This document shows positions 8,403 to 56,930 of a DNA stretch of 58,117 bases, in pieces. The translations under genes were made by a program, and so were the position numbers. How positions within the stretch are numbered: the stretch's first letter is position 1; every line of letters starts with the position of its first letter. This DNA is from a bacterium (GTDB taxonomy: Bacteria > Patescibacteriota > Minisyncoccia > UBA6257 > MFKM01). The notes under the pieces are model-generated. The model ran no database searches. It was not told the DNA's origin and worked only from the letters and a program-made list of their open reading frames with translations. The stretch lies in assembly GCA_030693325.1 (NCBI GenBank), contig JAUYAV010000005.1, positions 1 to 58,117 on the forward strand. The letters are read 5' to 3'.

Positions 8403-8440
8403 AAATATTTTTTTAAATAATATTATTGATTTTCTAAGTG

Positions 8441-49110: not shown

Positions 49111-49131
49111 GATTCAAACTCACGAACAAAG

Positions 49132-49217
49132 CGGAAGCGGGAGGATTCGAACCTCCGAGGGGAATTTCCCCAACTGGTTTTCAAGACCAGCGCCATAAAC
49201 CACTCGGCCACGCTTCC
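49132..49217 (-). tRNA. tRNA-Ser (anticodon UGA), long variable arm
   Basis: Minus strand GGAAGCG TG GCCGAGTGGTTTATGGCG CTGGT CTTGAAA ACCAG TTGGGGAAATTCCCCTC GGAGG TTCGAAT CCTCC CGCTTCC G. Confidence 0.9.
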
Positions 49218-49255
49218 GCTTTGTTCACTAGTTTTTCCCGCCGTTGGCGGGATTG

Positions 49256-49335
49256 CGATTTGTAGATAAAATTTTAACAAATTTTATACAAATCGGGAAC
49301 AAGACTACCGCCTTAAACCACTCGGCCACCCCACC
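49256..49335 (-). other. Second tRNA-like 5' half (type II, Ser/Leu-like) fused to a long AT-rich hairpin
   Basis: Minus strand GGTGGGG TG GCCGAGTGGTTTAAGGCG GTAGT CTTGTTC, then the hairpin CGATTTGTATAAAATTT-GTT-AAAATTTTATCTACAAATCG. No T-arm or 3' acceptor strand. Lies directly upstream of tRNA-Ser. Confidence 0.55.
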
Positions 49336-49383
49336 CTTCCATTTTCTTTATTATTTTTCTATTATAATTTAATCAATCCGAGA

Positions 49384-49412
49384 TTGAAAGGCAAATTGAT
49401 TATTTGTATAAT
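49384..49412 (+). promoter_or_regulatory. Candidate promoter of the tRNA-Arg/tRNA-Val pair
   Basis: TTGAAA (49384..49389), a 17-nt spacer, then TATAAT (49407..49412). The predicted start falls at or next to tRNA-Arg position 1 (49420). Confidence 0.5.
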
Positions 49413-49419
49413 TCATTTA

Positions 49420-49491
49420 CCCCTCGTAGTTCAATGGATAGAACGGGAATCTCCTAAGTTCTAAATGCAGGTTCGATTCCTGCCGAGGGGA
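49420..49491 (+). tRNA. tRNA-Arg (anticodon CCU)
   Basis: CCCCTCG TA GTTC AATGGATA GAAC G GGAAT CTCCTAA GTTCT AAAT GCAGG TTCGATT CCTGC CGAGGGG A. Confidence 0.88.
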
Positions 49492-49499
49492 TGAATGAA

Positions 49500-49574
49500 G
49501 GGCGTTTAGCTCAGTGGTAGAGCGTTTCGTTGACATCGAAAAGGTCGGAGGTCCAATCCCTCCAACGCCCACCA
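49500..49574 (+). tRNA. tRNA-Val (anticodon GAC), CCA encoded
   Basis: GGGCGTT TA GCTC AGTGGTA GAGC G TTTCG TTGACAT CGAAA AGGTC GGAGG TCCAATC CCTCC AACGCCC A CCA. Confidence 0.9.
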
Positions 49575-49618
49575 GGCAGGATTTTGCACATTGATAAGCT
49601 CTATGGTACGATTAAAAA

Positions 49619-50305
49619 ATGAAATCACGCTATCATCATTTAAAGCCGAGAATAATTGCCCTTCGTAAATCAGGCAAAACATATACCGAGATATGTAAAA
49701 TTATTGGCATAAATATTTCGAAAGGCACTTTATCTGACTGGTGCGGCAGTATTTCGCTATCCCCTGAACAGCAGCAAAGAGTCGAACGTTCAATCAAAAG
49801 AGGCACAAAAAAGGGGCAAGCAGTCGCATTGGTTGTTAATAAGCTGAAAAGAGAAAAGTATATCCAAGCCATAAGAGATAGAGTGAATCATCTTCCCGAT
49901 AAGTTAAAAGATGAAAATACTTCAAAAATTGCGCTTGCAATGTTGTACTTAGGAGAGGGATCGAAAACCAAGAGGGGATCTTTAATGTTCGGCAATTCAG
50001 ATCCATTGGTTATACGTTTATTTTTGGGCTTGTTGAGATACTGTTACGATATCAACGAAAATAAATTTCGTTGTACGCTTCAATGCAGAGCTGACCAAGA
50101 TATTAAAAAACTGGAAAAATTTTGGTCCAATATTACAAAAATTCCGTTTTCGCAATTTTATAAAGCAAGGATTGATCCGAGAACCATAGGAAAACGATCA
50201 AAGAAAAAAGATTATAAAGGCGTTTGTAGAATAGATTATTTTTCTGCGGATATTTTTAATGAGCTTCAAATTATTATTGAAATTATTGGTAATATAGAAT
50301 TTTAA
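49619..50305 (+). CDS. HTH plus LAGLIDADG-like homing-endonuclease-like protein
   Basis: N-terminal resolvase-type HTH (RKSGKTYTEICKIIGINISKGTLSDWC). Central IALAMLYLGEGSKTKRGSLMFGNSDPLVIRLFLGLL resembles single-motif LAGLIDADG proteins, judged by eye. Confidence 0.5.
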   Translation: MKSRYHHLKPRIIALRKSGKTYTEICKIIGINISKGTLSDWCGSISLSPEQQQRVERSIKRGTKKGQAVALVVNKLKREKYIQAIRDRVNHLPDKLKDENTSKIALAMLYLGEGSKTKRGSLMFGNSDPLVIRLFLGLLRYCYDINENKFRCTLQCRADQDIKKLEKFWSNITKIPFSQFYKARIDPRTIGKRSKKKDYKGVCRIDYFSADIFNELQIIIEIIGNIEF

Positions 50306-51888
50306 TCGGGCCTATAGTTTAATGGTAAAATAAGTCGATGGCATCGACTAGTTGGGAGTTCGATTCTCCCTAGGTCCACTAATTGAGATTTATCACCGGC
50401 AAAATGCTGATTTAACTCGTAAATATAGCCTAATTTGGCGGTTCCAAATCCTTCATTTCGTCTGTAAGGAATTCCCTCCGGAAATATCAGCTTTTGGAAC
50501 TTTGATTGCAGGGGTGGCGCCAAATCAAACCACTGCCGGCCGAGATTGCGAATAAAACTGGTTGCGTAGACTAAGGCAGCTTCAATATCAAATTGTTCTA
50601 TTTTCGCTTCGCTTGAAGAAATTTTGACAGCGGCGACTTCGTTTTCTACCTCTTCTTTCCGTTCAATAAACTCGTCTTTGGTATAAGAGCCGTCCTCGCG
50701 CATCTCGCAGATGCGTTTTTTCTTTGCCTCGAGGAGTTTTAATTGTTTGGCATATTTCTCGGCTTCAAGTTCAAAAATTCGCCCTTTTTCCTGCCATAAA
50801 TCGAGGACAGTTTCTTTAAATACCTTGAGAAATTTCTCTTTCGGCGTAACCTGTTCGAGATAAACCAAAAACTCCTTTTCAAGATCAAGCTTATGAATGC
50901 CTTTGCCGAACATTGAGCATTCTTTGTTTTGGCAGTGGTAATAATAATATTTTCCACCATTACCCCGGGGAGCGCTGCCGGTAAGGGGTCTTGAGCAATC
51001 AGCGCACAGTACCGTCCTTCTGAGCGGGAAGTGGGGATTATATTTATTATGTTTCACTGTCCTTGTCTTGCCCGAACGAACCAGCATAATCTGATACATT
51101 TCATCCTTTGTGATCATGGGGCTGTGAAGTCCGTTTACGTCTTCACCGGTCCACGGATTGAAGATGATTCCCGCGTAGAATTTCAGATACTTTCCCAAAA
51201 TCCTATCTACTAATTGCGGGGTGCTTTTGGTCCCCCGGATATCTTTAAGGCCCCATTGATCCATCATCCGGGCCAGCTCAACCTGCGAGTACAGCCCCTT
51301 TGCGAACTCTTTAAGGGCTTTTTGGATAATCGGGAAAATCTGCTCGTCCGGCGGATCGGGCTGAGTTTTTTTCTCGCCTCGTTTTTTGAAATGGGAACAC
51401 TTATAGCCGAGAGGCTGTCTCCAGGGAAAGATTCCCTGGTTTATTCTTGTGAGCATTCCATCGCTGCATCTTTGTTTTCGGATGGCGTTATCATATTCGG
51501 CTGCCCCGGCCAGCACGGTTTCGATGAATTTTTCCGCCGGCTTGTTGCCGATGGGTTCGGTTACCGAGTGGAGGGTGGTGCCGTAATCCAGGAGAATTTT
51601 GCGGACGGCGAAATGGTCTTCGGTGTTGCGGGCGAACCTGTCAACTCGCAGGACAATAAAGGCCTGGATTTGTTTTTTGTTCTTTCGGCAGAACTCCAGC
51701 GCTTCCAGGAATTTTTTTCTGTTATTCAAACTCAAGTCCTTGGCGCTTTCGCCTTCTTCCCGGAAAAGGGCCACGATTTCAAGGCCTTTCTGCTCGCAGT
51801 ATTTGCGGCAGAGTTCCTCCTGAAATTCGAGGGAGGTTCCTTTGACCTGCTCATCGCTTGATACTCTTGTATAGATAATACCTTTCAT
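50302..51888 (-). CDS. Large serine recombinase (integrase)
   Basis: MKGIIYTRVSSDEQ catalytic-serine motif, a resolvase domain, a recombinase domain and the zinc ribbon CADCSRPLTG...YYYYHCQNKEC, then a coiled-coil-like C-terminus. An alternative upstream ATG lies at 51936. The last about 25 codons are antisense to tRNA-Ala. Confidence 0.88.
   Translation of the reverse strand: MKGIIYTRVSSDEQVKGTSLEFQEELCRKYCEQKGLEIVALFREEGESAKDLSLNNRKKFLEALEFCRKNKKQIQAFIVLRVDRFARNTEDHFAVRKILLDYGTTLHSVTEPIGNKPAEKFIETVLAGAAEYDNAIRKQRCSDGMLTRINQGIFPWRQPLGYKCSHFKKRGEKKTQPDPPDEQIFPIIQKALKEFAKGLYSQVELARMMDQWGLKDIRGTKSTPQLVDRILGKYLKFYAGIIFNPWTGEDVNGLHSPMITKDEMYQIMLVRSGKTRTVKHNKYNPHFPLRRTVLCADCSRPLTGSAPRGNGGKYYYYHCQNKECSMFGKGIHKLDLEKEFLVYLEQVTPKEKFLKVFKETVLDLWQEKGRIFELEAEKYAKQLKLLEAKKKRICEMREDGSYTKDEFIERKEEVENEVAAVKISSSEAKIEQFDIEAALVYATSFIRNLGRQWFDLAPPLQSKFQKLIFPEGIPYRRNEGFGTAKLGYIYELNQHFAGDKSQLVDLGRIELPTSRCHRLILPLNYRPD
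50308..50378 (+). tRNA. tRNA-Ala (anticodon GGC) with G3:U70
   Basis: GGGCCTA TA GTTT AATGGTA AAAT A AGTCG ATGGCAT CGACT AGTT GGGAG TTCGATT CTCCC TAGGTCC A. Confidence 0.9.
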
Positions 51889-51919
51889 AATCCTGTTTAT
51901 GCTTAATCGCGAGGACACA

Positions 51920-52174
51920 TTAGCGTTCTTGTCCATTAAAGTAAAGTCGCGGATTTCGCTTCTTTTTGCGGCATTCCGGGGGCATGTTTGCGGATTCTGT
52001 CTCGTTTAAAGGCGGGCGCTTAAGATCGTTTAATTTATCTGTTCTTTTTTCCTCTTGCCATTTTCCAAAGATAATCTCGGCGAGCAGATAAAATCCATCC
52101 CTGATTTCCTGGATTTCTTTATCCGAGAGGGTGGGGTCGTTTAACAGCTCTTTTGTGCGTTCAAGACTAAGCAT
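51920..52174 (-). CDS. Hypothetical protein
   Basis: 84-aa ORF packed between the RuvC-like and recombinase genes. No motif recognised. Confidence 0.45.
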   Translation of the reverse strand: MLSLERTKELLNDPTLSDKEIQEIRDGFYLLAEIIFGKWQEEKRTDKLNDLKRPPLNETESANMPPECRKKKRNPRLYFNGQER

Positions 52175-53942: not shown

Positions 53943-54179
53943 ATGAACTTGAATGAACTGGGCAATAGAAAAGCGATGATCACCATCGCCGGTGAGGAAG
54001 TGGAGGTCAACGCCTCTGACTCCGTGAAGGACGCCTTAAAGCGAATCCTTCAGGAAAAAGGCATTGATTCTTTTACCATCCTGGTTGACGGTAAAGAGGT
54101 TACCGCGACCGAAGATCTGCCGCAGGCGTTTTCCGGACATGTAATTGAAGTGGAAAGATACGTCAAGGCGGGAAGATAA
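53943..54179 (+). CDS. Ubiquitin-like (ThiS/MoaD-type beta-grasp) protein, 78 aa, C-terminus ...YVKAGR
   Basis: The size and pattern MITIAGEEVEV...DALKRIL...ILVDGKEV...GHVIEVERYVKAG-R parallel ThiS/MoaD proteins, which end in GG. GGGGTGAG precedes the ATG at 53943. First gene of an operon with E2-, E1- and JAB-like genes. Confidence 0.6.
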   Translation: MNLNELGNRKAMITIAGEEVEVNASDSVKDALKRILQEKGIDSFTILVDGKEVTATEDLPQAFSGHVIEVERYVKAGR

Positions 54180-54857: not shown

Positions 54858-55799
54858 ATGTTGGGAAACGCGCTTTATGAAAGGCAGAACCTGATAGCGG
54901 ATCTGGATATCCCCGAGGTTGCCACAGTCATCGGCGTAGGCGGCACGGGTTTTTGGACGGCCGTCTTCCTGGCGATGTCAGGGGTTGAGGAAATAATCCT
55001 GGTGGATAAGGATATGGTTGAGGCTTCTAACTTGAACCGCCTGCCGCTGAAGGATTCGCTTATCGGGGTGAAGAAAATAAACGCGGCCAGCGATTTCATC
55101 AGCCAGATACGCAGTCCGGTAAGAATCGAGGCCCATGACCTGCGCATTGAAAAGCCGCAGGACTGTACTGTCTTGAGGGGGATGGTTTTCTGCTGCACGG
55201 ATAATTTAAAGAGCCAGCAGATTGTCTGCGCTTATTGCAAGAAAAACAAAATTCCCTACCAGAGGATAGGTTATGACGGAACAATCTTGAACGTTTCAAA
55301 AACATTCCCTCTTTCCTTCAAGGAAGAGGTTGGGGAAACTGGTTATAGCGTTACCCCGTCCTGGGTTATTCCCGCGGTTTTTGCCGCGGCAGCCGGGGTA
55401 TCCTCAAAGCTCTACAAAGAGCTCTGCCTGATGGATGATATCGGCAAAATCAATATTCAGAACTCTTCGTTTGTTGCCGAGGGGATCCTTGATGAGGCGA
55501 GGGAAGAGGAAAAAGAAAATATTATTGAGAATATCCATGAATACATACCGGACAGCTACGGCTGTTGCGAGGACTGCAATCGTGTTGATCCTGACAACGG
55601 CGATTACGGCTATTGCCCTGATTGCGAAGAACGTTACAACGAAGATGATTTGAAAGAGATAAAAGAAAAAGCGCGCAATGAGGAATATGACCGGATAATT
55701 GAGCAGATTGAAACGGGAGAAATCAGCGATGCAAAACTCATAGCAGCCATTAAAAAATGGTGTGAGCAAAAGGAGGATACAGAGAATGTTAGAAAATGA
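54858..55799 (+). CDS. ThiF/MoeB/E1-family adenylyltransferase (ubiquitin-activating-enzyme-like)
   Basis: Rossmann motif VIGVGGTGFWTAVFLAMSG, VDKDMVEASNLNRL and VFCCTDN, then the zinc-type pair CCEDC...CPDC and an acidic helical tail. A strong AAGGAGG RBS precedes the start. Confidence 0.85.
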   Translation: MLGNALYERQNLIADLDIPEVATVIGVGGTGFWTAVFLAMSGVEEIILVDKDMVEASNLNRLPLKDSLIGVKKINAASDFISQIRSPVRIEAHDLRIEKPQDCTVLRGMVFCCTDNLKSQQIVCAYCKKNKIPYQRIGYDGTILNVSKTFPLSFKEEVGETGYSVTPSWVIPAVFAAAAGVSSKLYKELCLMDDIGKINIQNSSFVAEGILDEAREEEKENIIENIHEYIPDSYGCCEDCNRVDPDNGDYGYCPDCEERYNEDDLKEIKEKARNEEYDRIIEQIETGEISDAKLIAAIKKWCEQKEDTENVRK

Positions 55800-56580
55800 T
55801 CTTCTCAAGAGAAGTAATATTCTGGAAGTAAAGATAAAAAATTACGGCGAATGCGGCTTTTGCAGCGATTTGGATAATCAGGAAACCTTAAAAATTCCCT
55901 GGGATATCTGGAGTCAGTGGCTGCATCTCAGCCAATGCTTGGGTAGCAAGGAATGGGGAGCGGTATTCTGGATAAAGGATAATTCCGTTACGCGCTTTAA
56001 GATACCCAGGCAGGAGGTTAGCTCGACTGACTGCGAATTCAAGGAAGAGTTAGGCGGTGACGGCATAGTGCATTCGCACCACGACATGGGGGCGTTTCAT
56101 TCAACTCAGGATGACCGCCACGCAAGAAATCTCTATGCCTACAGCATCGTTCTTTCAAACGCAAAAGGCTACGAGGCGACTAAAAGGATAAAACTGCCCT
56201 GCGCCGGTTTTGGCTATGTCAGGGTGGAACTGCGACTGGTCGATCTTCCGGATGTTGAGCTTTCAAAGATAACCGAAAGGCCGATCATTGAAGCTTACAT
56301 TCCGGCAGAGACACAGGATGAATCTCCCTGCGAAAAATGCGCCACCGGTGATTGCGGAAACTGTAAGCTTACGGACGTAGCCCGGCTGCCCTGCGATAAC
56401 TGCGTAAGCCTCAAGTGCAAGGAATGCCAGTTTACCTTTGCCGACACGGTTGATATGTTTCCCTTTTGCAGCTTGTGCGAGGATGGATTATGTAACCAAT
56501 GCGACAGGCTCGCCAAGTATTTGGAGAACTATCCGGATGACAAAAAATGCTTTGAGCATCTTCTTGTTGGCAAAACCTAA
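55786..56580 (+). CDS. JAB/JAMM (MPN+) metallopeptidase with a C-terminal six-CxxC zinc-ribbon-like extension
   Basis: Exact JAMM spacing H-x-H-x7-S-x2-D in VHSHHDMGAFHSTQD (56071..56112). AGGAGG lies 8 nt before the ATG at 55786. Overlaps the E1 gene by 14 nt. The C-terminus has CEKC, CGNC, CDNC, CKEC, CSLC and CNQC. Confidence 0.85.
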   Translation: MLENDLLKRSNILEVKIKNYGECGFCSDLDNQETLKIPWDIWSQWLHLSQCLGSKEWGAVFWIKDNSVTRFKIPRQEVSSTDCEFKEELGGDGIVHSHHDMGAFHSTQDDRHARNLYAYSIVLSNAKGYEATKRIKLPCAGFGYVRVELRLVDLPDVELSKITERPIIEAYIPAETQDESPCEKCATGDCGNCKLTDVARLPCDNCVSLKCKECQFTFADTVDMFPFCSLCEDGLCNQCDRLAKYLENYPDDKKCFEHLLVGKT

Positions 56581-56603
56581 TAATGAAAAAGGAGGCTATA
56601 ACC

Positions 56604-56930
56604 ATGTGGAATAAGCCAGGCCCTGAAGAGCTTGCAAAAATTCCGGTCATGTACTCAACCGAAAGCGTGTCCTTAAAGGAAAAGATGATTCACATGCACT
56701 TCTTTTTGGGAGGATGCGACTGGTATGCGGCTGAGTACGATTCTGAAAGCCGGATATTTTTTGGCTTTGCCATACTCAACGACGATCTGGAGATGGCGGA
56801 ATGGGGATACTTTTCTTTGCAGGAATTGTGCGATCTGAAAGTAGGGTTCCTCGAGGTGGACAGGGATTTGCATTTTGAACCGAGAAAAGCGATGGAAATA
56901 GAAAGAATCAGACAGGCGGAAAGGAGGTAA
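56604..56930 (+). CDS. DUF2958-like protein
   Basis: MHFFLGGCDWYAAEYDSESRIFFGFAILNDDLEMAEWGYFSLQELCDL matches my recollection of the DUF2958 family common on plasmids and ICEs. AGGAGG precedes the ATG at 56604; an alternative ATG lies at 56583. Confidence 0.65.
   Translation: MWNKPGPEELAKIPVMYSTESVSLKEKMIHMHFFLGGCDWYAAEYDSESRIFFGFAILNDDLEMAEWGYFSLQELCDLKVGFLEVDRDLHFEPRKAMEIERIRQAERR

Follow-up and report, generated by a model that had tools for sequence, protein, structure and literature searches.

An unclassified cysteine-knuckle tail on the predicted JAB peptidase of a ubiquitin-like cassette in a Patescibacteriota genome

Why would a bacterial JAB peptidase carry twelve cysteines packed into a short stretch behind its catalytic domain? 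The question is raised by one gene near the right-hand end of contig JAUYAV010000005.1 (assembly GCA_030693325.1, phylum Patescibacteriota), the whole 58,117 bp of which form the window analyzed here; the genome totals 661 kb in 25 contigs and is 95.7% complete. The gene encodes a JAMM/JAB metallopeptidase and follows genes for a ubiquitin-like protein (Ubl), an E2-like candidate and a ThiF/MoeB-type E1. A preliminary description, made from the sequence alone, had singled out a C-terminal module of six CxxC pairs that its author did not recall from Cap3 or BilC-type peptidases, and had suggested recognition of a target or of nucleic acid, or redox or zinc sensing. We find an enzyme of a known class, in a cassette of a known general type, that bears as its tail an unclassified, family-restricted cysteine-knuckle module. 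On balance we lean slightly towards an active JAB peptidase that would serve the cassette Ubl and carry an accessory Cys4 tail for docking or stability.

The catalytic part of the protein is conventional. The gene most likely starts at ATG 55786, because an aaggagg stands ahead of that codon at 55770–55776 and the alignment with homologues agrees; this start overlaps the E1 stop codon by 14 nt, and the mechanical open reading frame (ORF) listing begins at GTG 55762, giving 272 amino acids (aa). The protein clears the cut-off of Pfam Prok-JAB (PF14464; 29.1 bits, cut-off 25, residues 78–135 in the 272-aa numbering). Among 5.8 billion proteins searched, 140 homologues were recovered at E ≤ 1e-3, of which 120 underlie the family counts given below. 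The five catalytic residues E56, H96, H98, S106 and D109 are invariant in a 77-row alignment, and across the 120-row alignment E56, H96, S106 and D109 occur in 120/120 and H98 in 119/120; judged from these alignments, the peptidase motif is intact. Four cysteines of the core are likewise kept (C23 119/120, C26 116/120, C83 114/120, C139 120/120) and may form a fourth structural cysteine site, separate from those of the tail. Two of them belong to the CGFC that the preliminary description had noticed near the N-terminus, which lies at residues 23–26 and is found in homologues without the tail as well. We treat this core site as tentative because a distant relative on an IMG/VR viral contig (L026) has no equivalent of C83.

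The protein contains 18 cysteines (residues 23, 26, 51, 83, 139, 182, 185, 190, 193, 203, 206, 211, 214, 228, 231, 236, 239 and 255), and CxxC pairs start at residues 23 (CGFC), 182 (CEKC), 190 (CGNC), 203 (CDNC), 211 (CKEC), 228 (CSLC) and 236 (CNQC). In the tail they follow one another as CEKC-x4-CGNC-x9-CDNC-x4-CKEC-x13-CSLC-x4-CNQC, that is, 12 cysteines within the 58 residues from 182 to 239, and positions 56329–56502 of the window begin with the TGC codon of Cys182 and finish with that of Cys239. The preliminary description therefore had both the JAB (MPN) domain and the twelve cysteines in 58 residues behind it right, and miscounted the gaps between the pairs: it gave x5, x10, x5, x16 and x5, each of them too long. 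With the corrected spacing, the six pairs resolve into three C-x2-C-x4-C-x2-C units, each of which by its pattern could supply a Cys4 site, in agreement with the earlier estimate that twelve cysteines suffice for three sites. The pattern is beyond chance. Cysteine makes up 0.93% of the residues in the window's 50 ORFs of at least 150 aa, against 18 of 264 residues in the JAB protein, and even when all 18 cysteines were kept and the protein was shuffled, six CxxC within 58 residues were reached in only 2 of 100,000 shuffles. Conservation is a stronger argument against chance than shuffling. Among the homologues that have a residue at the position, the tail cysteine columns of the 120-row alignment are 92–100% cysteine (by column group, 100–104/109, 97/99–100, 99/106 and 97/97–98), and in an alignment of 13 tails the residues other than cysteine are just 33–66% identical to those of the window's tail.

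Comparison across the family further indicates that the tail is made of two independent modules. Module A consists of unit 1, with the consensus P-C-x2-C-x-T-G-D-C-x-N-C; module B comprises unit 2, a linker of 13–14 residues, P-F, unit 3 and a closing K-Y-L-x-N-Y-P-E. The Y-x2-N-Y-P motif at the end always accompanies units 2 and 3 and is missing from forms that have unit 1 only. Architecture classes were counted automatically over all 120 listed homologues, with a remainder sorted by eye. Both modules, defined as three C-x2-C-x(3-5)-C-x2-C units plus Y-x2-[ND]-[YF]-P, are present in 77/120; 18/120 carry module A only and end soon after unit 1, 9/120 carry module B only (units 2 and 3 with the end motif), and 4/120 have no tail CxxC at all. 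The remaining 12 include six A+B-like proteins with a changed end motif or extra cysteines, three B-like proteins and three with long spacers, of which P0114 has one CxxC pair in tail position, 14 residues apart, and P0118 and P0119 have four pairs each, 12–20 residues apart; these long-spacer tails draw weak zinc-finger matches from Pfam, none of which reaches its cut-off. Incomplete sequences do not account for the short forms in seven long contigs (L012, L015–L020): module B is truly missing there and not frameshifted, because the short JAB ORFs are complete and no second high-scoring segment pair lies downstream. A quick FastTree of the core alone (residues 1–165), unrooted and hence unable to distinguish gains from losses, requires 19 architecture changes, and its starred branches force at least four changes for A+B, at least three for A and at least two for B. 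Such repeated loss is what might be expected if the tail were evolutionary baggage without present function. We regard that explanation as highly improbable, given that the 12 cysteines, the P-F and the Y-x2-N-Y-P stay fixed while their neighbours drift to 33–66% identity and that most of the family (the 77 of 120) keeps both modules.

The tail corresponds to no catalogued domain, as the preliminary description had suspected. On the whole protein, Pfam covers the core and leaves the tail without a domain call; on the tail alone no family reaches its cut-off (best E 0.33–4.3), and the Pfam zinc-finger matches of ten further homologues all lie below cut-off. The sole curated NCBIfam match of the core is PRTRC_A (TIGR03735, E 1.8e-4), a model of 192 positions matched up to position 184, at JAB residue 147. 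This model has no room for a cysteine tail because it ends about eight positions past the matched core. The JAB protein has no PADLOC or PHROGs match, the JAB family profile found nothing in the PDB at E ≤ 1 (whether entry 8TYX was included was not checked), and the ESM Atlas returned for tail residues 176–264 no usable feature match and only structure rows below TM 0.5. The tail-restricted profile search that had been suggested was run with a profile of 13 tails on 1.84 billion representative proteins and gave 7 proteins at E ≤ 1e-3, each either a protein of this JAB family or a fragment of such a protein; since all seven belong there, the module is confined to this peptidase family within HMMER's reach. 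The worry that it might prove to be a common, already classified domain thus found no catalogue match to sustain it. The literature searched contained no paper on this cassette or on a cysteine tail of a Ubl-cassette JAB, the supplementary operon tables of the Bil and Bub papers not being covered.

Comparable cysteine pairs were seen in two other proteins. In the E1 of viral contig L027, the C-terminus consists of three CxxC pairs with four residues between them. A protein of 72–87 aa encoded near the cassette in seven loci (L005:10300-10515 and its cluster in L006, L009, L010, L012, L013 and L014) ends in CxxC-x7-CxxC, resembling JAB unit 1, and has no Pfam match.

What the units may do can be considered from their ligands. 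We propose that each C-x2-C-x4-C-x2-C unit would form one Cys4 metal site, most likely for zinc, and that the C-terminal 85 residues would be an accessory, family-specific appendage outside the catalytic fold. A chain would then bind about five metal ions, one of them catalytic, one in the possible core site and three in the tail. That the units are metal-binding structural modules we hold with considerable confidence; that the metal is zinc seems to us probable. Because some homologues have a single unit and others have long-spacer CxxC pairs in the corresponding position, we favour pairing inside each unit, which would yield three Cys4 sites; the long-spacer tails also fit the idea that some small metal-stapled domain is generally needed there. 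Directly after the second CxxC of unit 3 comes a conserved K-[LI]-A-K-Y-L, which would fit a knuckle with a helix cap. Short Cys/His zinc knuckles, and the tandem fingers found on eukaryotic deubiquitinases, share with these units a very short spacing between ligand pairs, a build of small independent units and a tandem arrangement on a deubiquitinase. The tail differs from such known knuckles in its all-cysteine ligands, its C-x2-C-x4-C-x2-C pattern and the lack of a Pfam zinc-finger model at cut-off, so that the likeness is one of function and not of membership. A RING-type cross-brace was considered for module B and rejected: the RING consensus spacing is long-short-long, and that of module B is short-long-short (4, 13, 4).

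Cysteine-only ligands at tight spacing are also compatible with a cluster, and a C-x2-C-x4-C motif occurs in at least one [4Fe-4S] enzyme. The source labels (groundwater, subsurface, sediment) could be added to this if one assumes that iron-sulfur proteins are favoured in such hosts. It would nevertheless be quite unlikely, in our view, for the tail to bind iron-sulfur clusters or to act as a thiol/zinc redox switch tuning the peptidase to oxygen or oxidative stress: the tail shows no ferredoxin- or radical-SAM-type motif and no Pfam iron-sulfur match, its units occur singly and are freely lost, and in divergent members their place is taken by CxxC pairs with long spacers.

The genes beside the peptidase bear on what it would act upon. 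All 16 aligned Ubl sequences end in [AP]-G plus no or one further residue, 15 of them with K-A-G, and seven of the 16 stop at the glycine itself; the window's Ubl thus has the C-terminal glycine and the short extension of a removable type that are required of a Bil Ubl. Pfam support for a beta-grasp fold is weak (DUF348, E 0.004). The E2-like candidate has, as a lead only, an ESM Atlas match (score 0.93) to a cluster in which 39% of members carry Prok-E2_D. Pfam gives no match for the window's protein at E ≤ 0.1; across 13 E2-like members searched at E ≤ 10 it gives just a chance-level row for DUF5023 (one member, E 0.13) and none for Prok-E2_D (PF14460), a family for which the window's own genome has no match either. 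The E2-like profile against the PDB produced chance-level rows only (E 0.38–1.5). The E1 has invariant GxGGxG, NLNR and TD motifs, a crossover region that holds an invariant G-Y-x3-P-S-W and no conserved cysteine, and a C-terminus with CxxC-x13-CxxC, of which homologues have one to three pairs. In loci L021 and L022 the E1 keeps one CxxC, which is insufficient alone for a Cys4 site. In all 20 of the close loci the E1 and JAB genes are neighbours, while the E2-like gene is present in 19/20 and the Ubl gene in 18/20, the misses falling at contig ends; the order Ubl, E2-like, E1, JAB holds in every close locus whose contig reaches all four, and it recurs in the viral contigs L026 (18.9 kb) and L027 (139.6 kb). 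The DUF2958 gene downstream (Table 1) adjoins the cassette in two further loci, L013 and L016. In one Omnitrophota-labelled locus (L014:2566-3332) the E1 and JAB matches are each split in two, so the genes are interrupted there or contain sequencing errors.

Table 1. Features of the cassette, its JAB protein and the flanking island (window coordinates)
Feature	Position	Strand	Support or remark
JAMM/JAB metallopeptidase gene (P0001), 264 aa	55786..56580	+	Pfam Prok-JAB, 140 homologues
N-terminal CGFC (C23, C26)	55852..55863	+	alignment
JAMM catalytic motif E56; H96-x-H98-x7-S106-x2-D109	55951-55953; 56071-56112	+	alignments
Module A, unit 1 CEKC-x4-CGNC (C182-C193)	56329..56364	+	only unit left in ~203-234-aa homologues
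Module B, unit 2 CDNC-x4-CKEC (C203-C214)	56392..56427	+	sequence, alignment
Module B, unit 3 CSLC-x4-CNQC (C228-C239), invariant P-F ahead	56467..56502	+	alignment
C-terminal motif Y245-x2-N248-Y249-P250	56518..56535	+	invariant in 13-tail alignment
Ubl, 78 aa from start common to homologues, end ...VKAG-R	53943..54179	+	alignment
E2-like candidate, 195 aa	54255..54842	+	invariant H109, C121 (I-C-T-G-[DE])
ThiF/MoeB-type E1, 313 aa, one adenylation domain	54858..55799	+	Pfam ThiF E 1.6e-23, residues 23-134
DUF2958 gene	56583..56930	+	Pfam E 1e-7; 3 nt after JAB stop
Large serine recombinase	50302..51936	-	Resolvase E 7.9e-26, Zn_ribbon_recom
tRNA-Ala(GGC)	50308-50379	+	tRNA search

In such a setting, the JAB protein would trim the single residue that follows the ...VKAG of the Ubl, as BilC does, and would probably also strip the Ubl from whatever the ThiF-type E1 and the Cys-bearing E2-like protein conjugate it to. 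With their rigid, acidic surface, the knuckles of the tail would let the peptidase dock onto a partner, which might be the Ubl, a conjugate of Ubl and target, or another protein of the cassette; or they might simply make the protein more stable. Docking onto a protein is a tentative proposal, which we would put somewhat below an even chance.

Viral contig L027 adds a variation on the substrate side. Two of its genes (L027:3195-3698 and L027:12151-12672) code for a Ubl repeated twice in tandem, every copy being followed by VKAG, in the manner of a polyubiquitin precursor; a related set of E2-like, E1 and JAB genes is found next to them. These di-Ubl proteins would be the kind of precursor that a Ubl peptidase cuts. 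Tandem zinc fingers give some eukaryotic deubiquitinases their chain selectivity, and here up to three small Cys4 units stand in tandem on a Ubl peptidase, one relative of which is encoded with tandem di-Ubl substrates. Direct binding of the Ubl by the tail, which would then read a second site or tandem copies, is conceivable on these grounds and yet unlikely, because the window's Ubl is a single copy and the JAB of L027 itself has a tail with a different cysteine pattern. We would extend a similarly low expectation to a bolder idea, in which the stackable knuckles are a prokaryotic counterpart of the ubiquitin-binding finger arrays of eukaryotic deubiquitinases, reading Ubl or conjugate and thereby determining which conjugates the mobile-element peptidase erases, and in which the same knuckle type, swapped between E1 and JAB tails, holds a minimal Ubl, E2, E1 and JAB machine together.

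Several observations weigh against an active Ubl peptidase with a docking or stabilising Cys4 tail. The E2-like protein is a candidate, assigned from its His...Cys motif and the Atlas lead. The type of JAB tail shows no relation to how many CxxC pairs the E1 tail carries or to the extra residue at the Ubl C-terminus (compared by eye over the 20 loci), so no partner is indicated by co-variation. The x4 between the two knuckles of a unit is short. An iron-sulfur cluster, or pairing of cysteines across units, is conceivable. Finally, module B is missing in 22/120 homologues, four of which have no tail CxxC, which shows that the peptidase can do without the tail. The caution in the preliminary description that the tail might be dispensable accordingly holds in part, in that natural homologues exist without module A, module B or both. 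The same variation is useful: because natural variants with zero, one, two and three units exist, the role of the tail is easy to test by comparison and truncation. Docking of the tail to the Ubl or its targets would mean that prokaryotes, too, evolved accessory finger arrays on deubiquitinases; a purely stabilising tail would be a modest gain in annotation, a new Cys-knuckle domain family. The tail, a domain-sized, metal-type module without family assignment, is the most distinctive part of the cassette.

The cassette lies in an island to the right of tRNA-Ala(GGC). The 3' end of the large serine recombinase gene runs over this tRNA gene for about 25 codons on the opposite strand and marks the left edge of the island; as the translated end of the recombinase resembles a reversed tRNA, the true stop or the attachment site is probably at the tRNA edge. 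A second attachment site was sought in a 27-nt repeat of the 3' part of the tRNA on contig C9 and rejected, since the repeat is tRNA-Ala(CGC) in an ordinary chromosomal context. GC content does not set the island apart. In the likely source sequencing run (X1), contig depths, which are crude, are 30–32 to the left of the tRNA 3' end (50379) and 10.8 and 9.2 in two island contigs, with the break at the tRNA end; the island is therefore present in about one third of the population or was joined to the genome in assembly through shared tRNA sequence, and either possibility leaves the identity of the protein unchanged. In a run of a second study (X2), the island pieces are 96–99% alike, and a 533-nt piece over the tail has three differences. 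Eleven tRNA genes lie at 8440–50379 in the window, five of them within 49131–50379, just left of the island. Between tRNA genes there, a 228-aa ORF (49619–50305, + strand) has no Pfam match at E ≤ 0.01. Contig C9 carries a 222-aa ORF (L032:8904-9572, - strand) that looks like a putative LAGLIDADG-type homing endonuclease.

Genes for RuvC-like and helix-turn-helix proteins follow the recombinase in the window, and SpoVG and DUF6876 genes stand near the cassette in other loci. Small DNA-related genes of this kind could suit a tail that acts as a nucleic-acid-binding zinc-finger array and takes the peptidase to the DNA or RNA of a mobile element, and short knuckles do bind nucleic acids in other systems. 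Against this, the tail is net acidic (14 D/E, 10 K/R), unit 1 has a conserved acidic consensus, and the genes with which the JAB gene is consistently linked are those of the Ubl, the E2-like protein and the E1, not that of a DNA enzyme. We consider nucleic-acid binding very unlikely and, because the tail is net acidic, the least favoured of the guesses made in the preliminary description.

The JAB family was detected in 0 of 300 other genomes sampled from the window's phylum, all listed genomes of which measure 0.5–1.2 Mb. Omnitrophota or Omnitrophica is named in the titles of nine of the 20 close loci, and the rest comprise assorted labels of metagenome-assembled genomes (MAGs) plus Velamenicoccus archaeovorus; the latter, Ca. 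Velamenicoccus archaeovorus, presumably belongs to Omnitrophota and would make a tenth such locus. Most recurrences of the cassette are thus in MAGs labelled Omnitrophota, in metagenomes from groundwater and in the two viral contigs. In cultured phage and plasmid collections, tblastn gave no match to the JAB protein, and the E1 matched only TcdA-like genes in four Acinetobacter records.

How, then, does the cassette compare with known systems? CBASS Cap2/Cap3, Bil and Bub have lately shown that bacterial Ubl conjugation systems are working machines on mobile or defence loci, and no profile library searched recognises the present cassette as a system. Its nearest relation by library match is the PRTRC system, likewise a mobile-element cassette with a ThiF protein. 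The scores lie below the PRTRC cut-offs (JAB 21.1 against 101.8 bits; E1 13.1 against 144.75 for PRTRC_ThiF, TIGR03736), and no NCBIfam PRTRC model matched the E2-like protein, the Ubl or the two downstream ORFs at E ≤ 0.1, ParB not being searched for and the contig ending 1.5 kb downstream. PRTRC protein A is likewise uncharacterised, appearing only as annotation in the available text of the papers. The cassette is at best a distant cousin of the PRTRC cassette.

Bil offers the closer functional parallel. According to the available passages of the BilC study (PMC10557695), BilC takes off one residue beyond the glycine of its Ubl and cleaves conjugates as well, and its structure is deposited as 8TYX (Chambers et al.). 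As far as those passages go, Bil and the present cassette have in common a JAMM peptidase encoded with Ubl, E2 and E1, and a Ubl that ends in glycine plus a short extension; for BilC the passages mention catalytic zinc only. The two differ in gene order, which is bilA-B-C-D in Bil and Ubl, E2-like, E1, JAB here, and in the E1, a 313-aa single ThiF domain here and IAD-AAD-CYS in Bil. Our JAB and E2-like profiles found no related solved structure, and no PADLOC model matches the JAB, E2-like or Ubl protein, the Bil content of these libraries not having been checked.

Cap3 of type II CBASS and the peptidase arm of type I Bub complete the comparison. In the available text of PMC11601596, Cap3 is a JAMM peptidase opposing an E1/E2-type ligase, and the present JAB protein resembles it in facing such a ligase in a mobile or defence locus; unlike in the Cap3 locus, the E1 is not fused to an E2 and there is a separate Ubl, and PADLOC 'E1-E2' models match only over the ThiF core. 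The same text describes type I Bub (6E) as combining Ubl, E2, E1 and JAB functions in a mobile-element operon at a tRNA gene, with Ubl-E2 and JAB-E1 fusions, Ser/Tyr oxyester chemistry and a DUF6527 protease. The present cassette likewise unites the four functions in a mobile-element operon inserted at a tRNA; unlike in Bub, each function has its own gene, and an invariant cysteine is present in the E2-like protein (DUF6527 was not searched for). The cassette works like the peptidase arms of Bil, Cap3 and Bub, yet departs from them in gene order, E1 architecture and library matches, and so presents a compact fourth layout in which Ubl, E2-like protein, single-domain E1 and JAB peptidase are each encoded by a separate gene.

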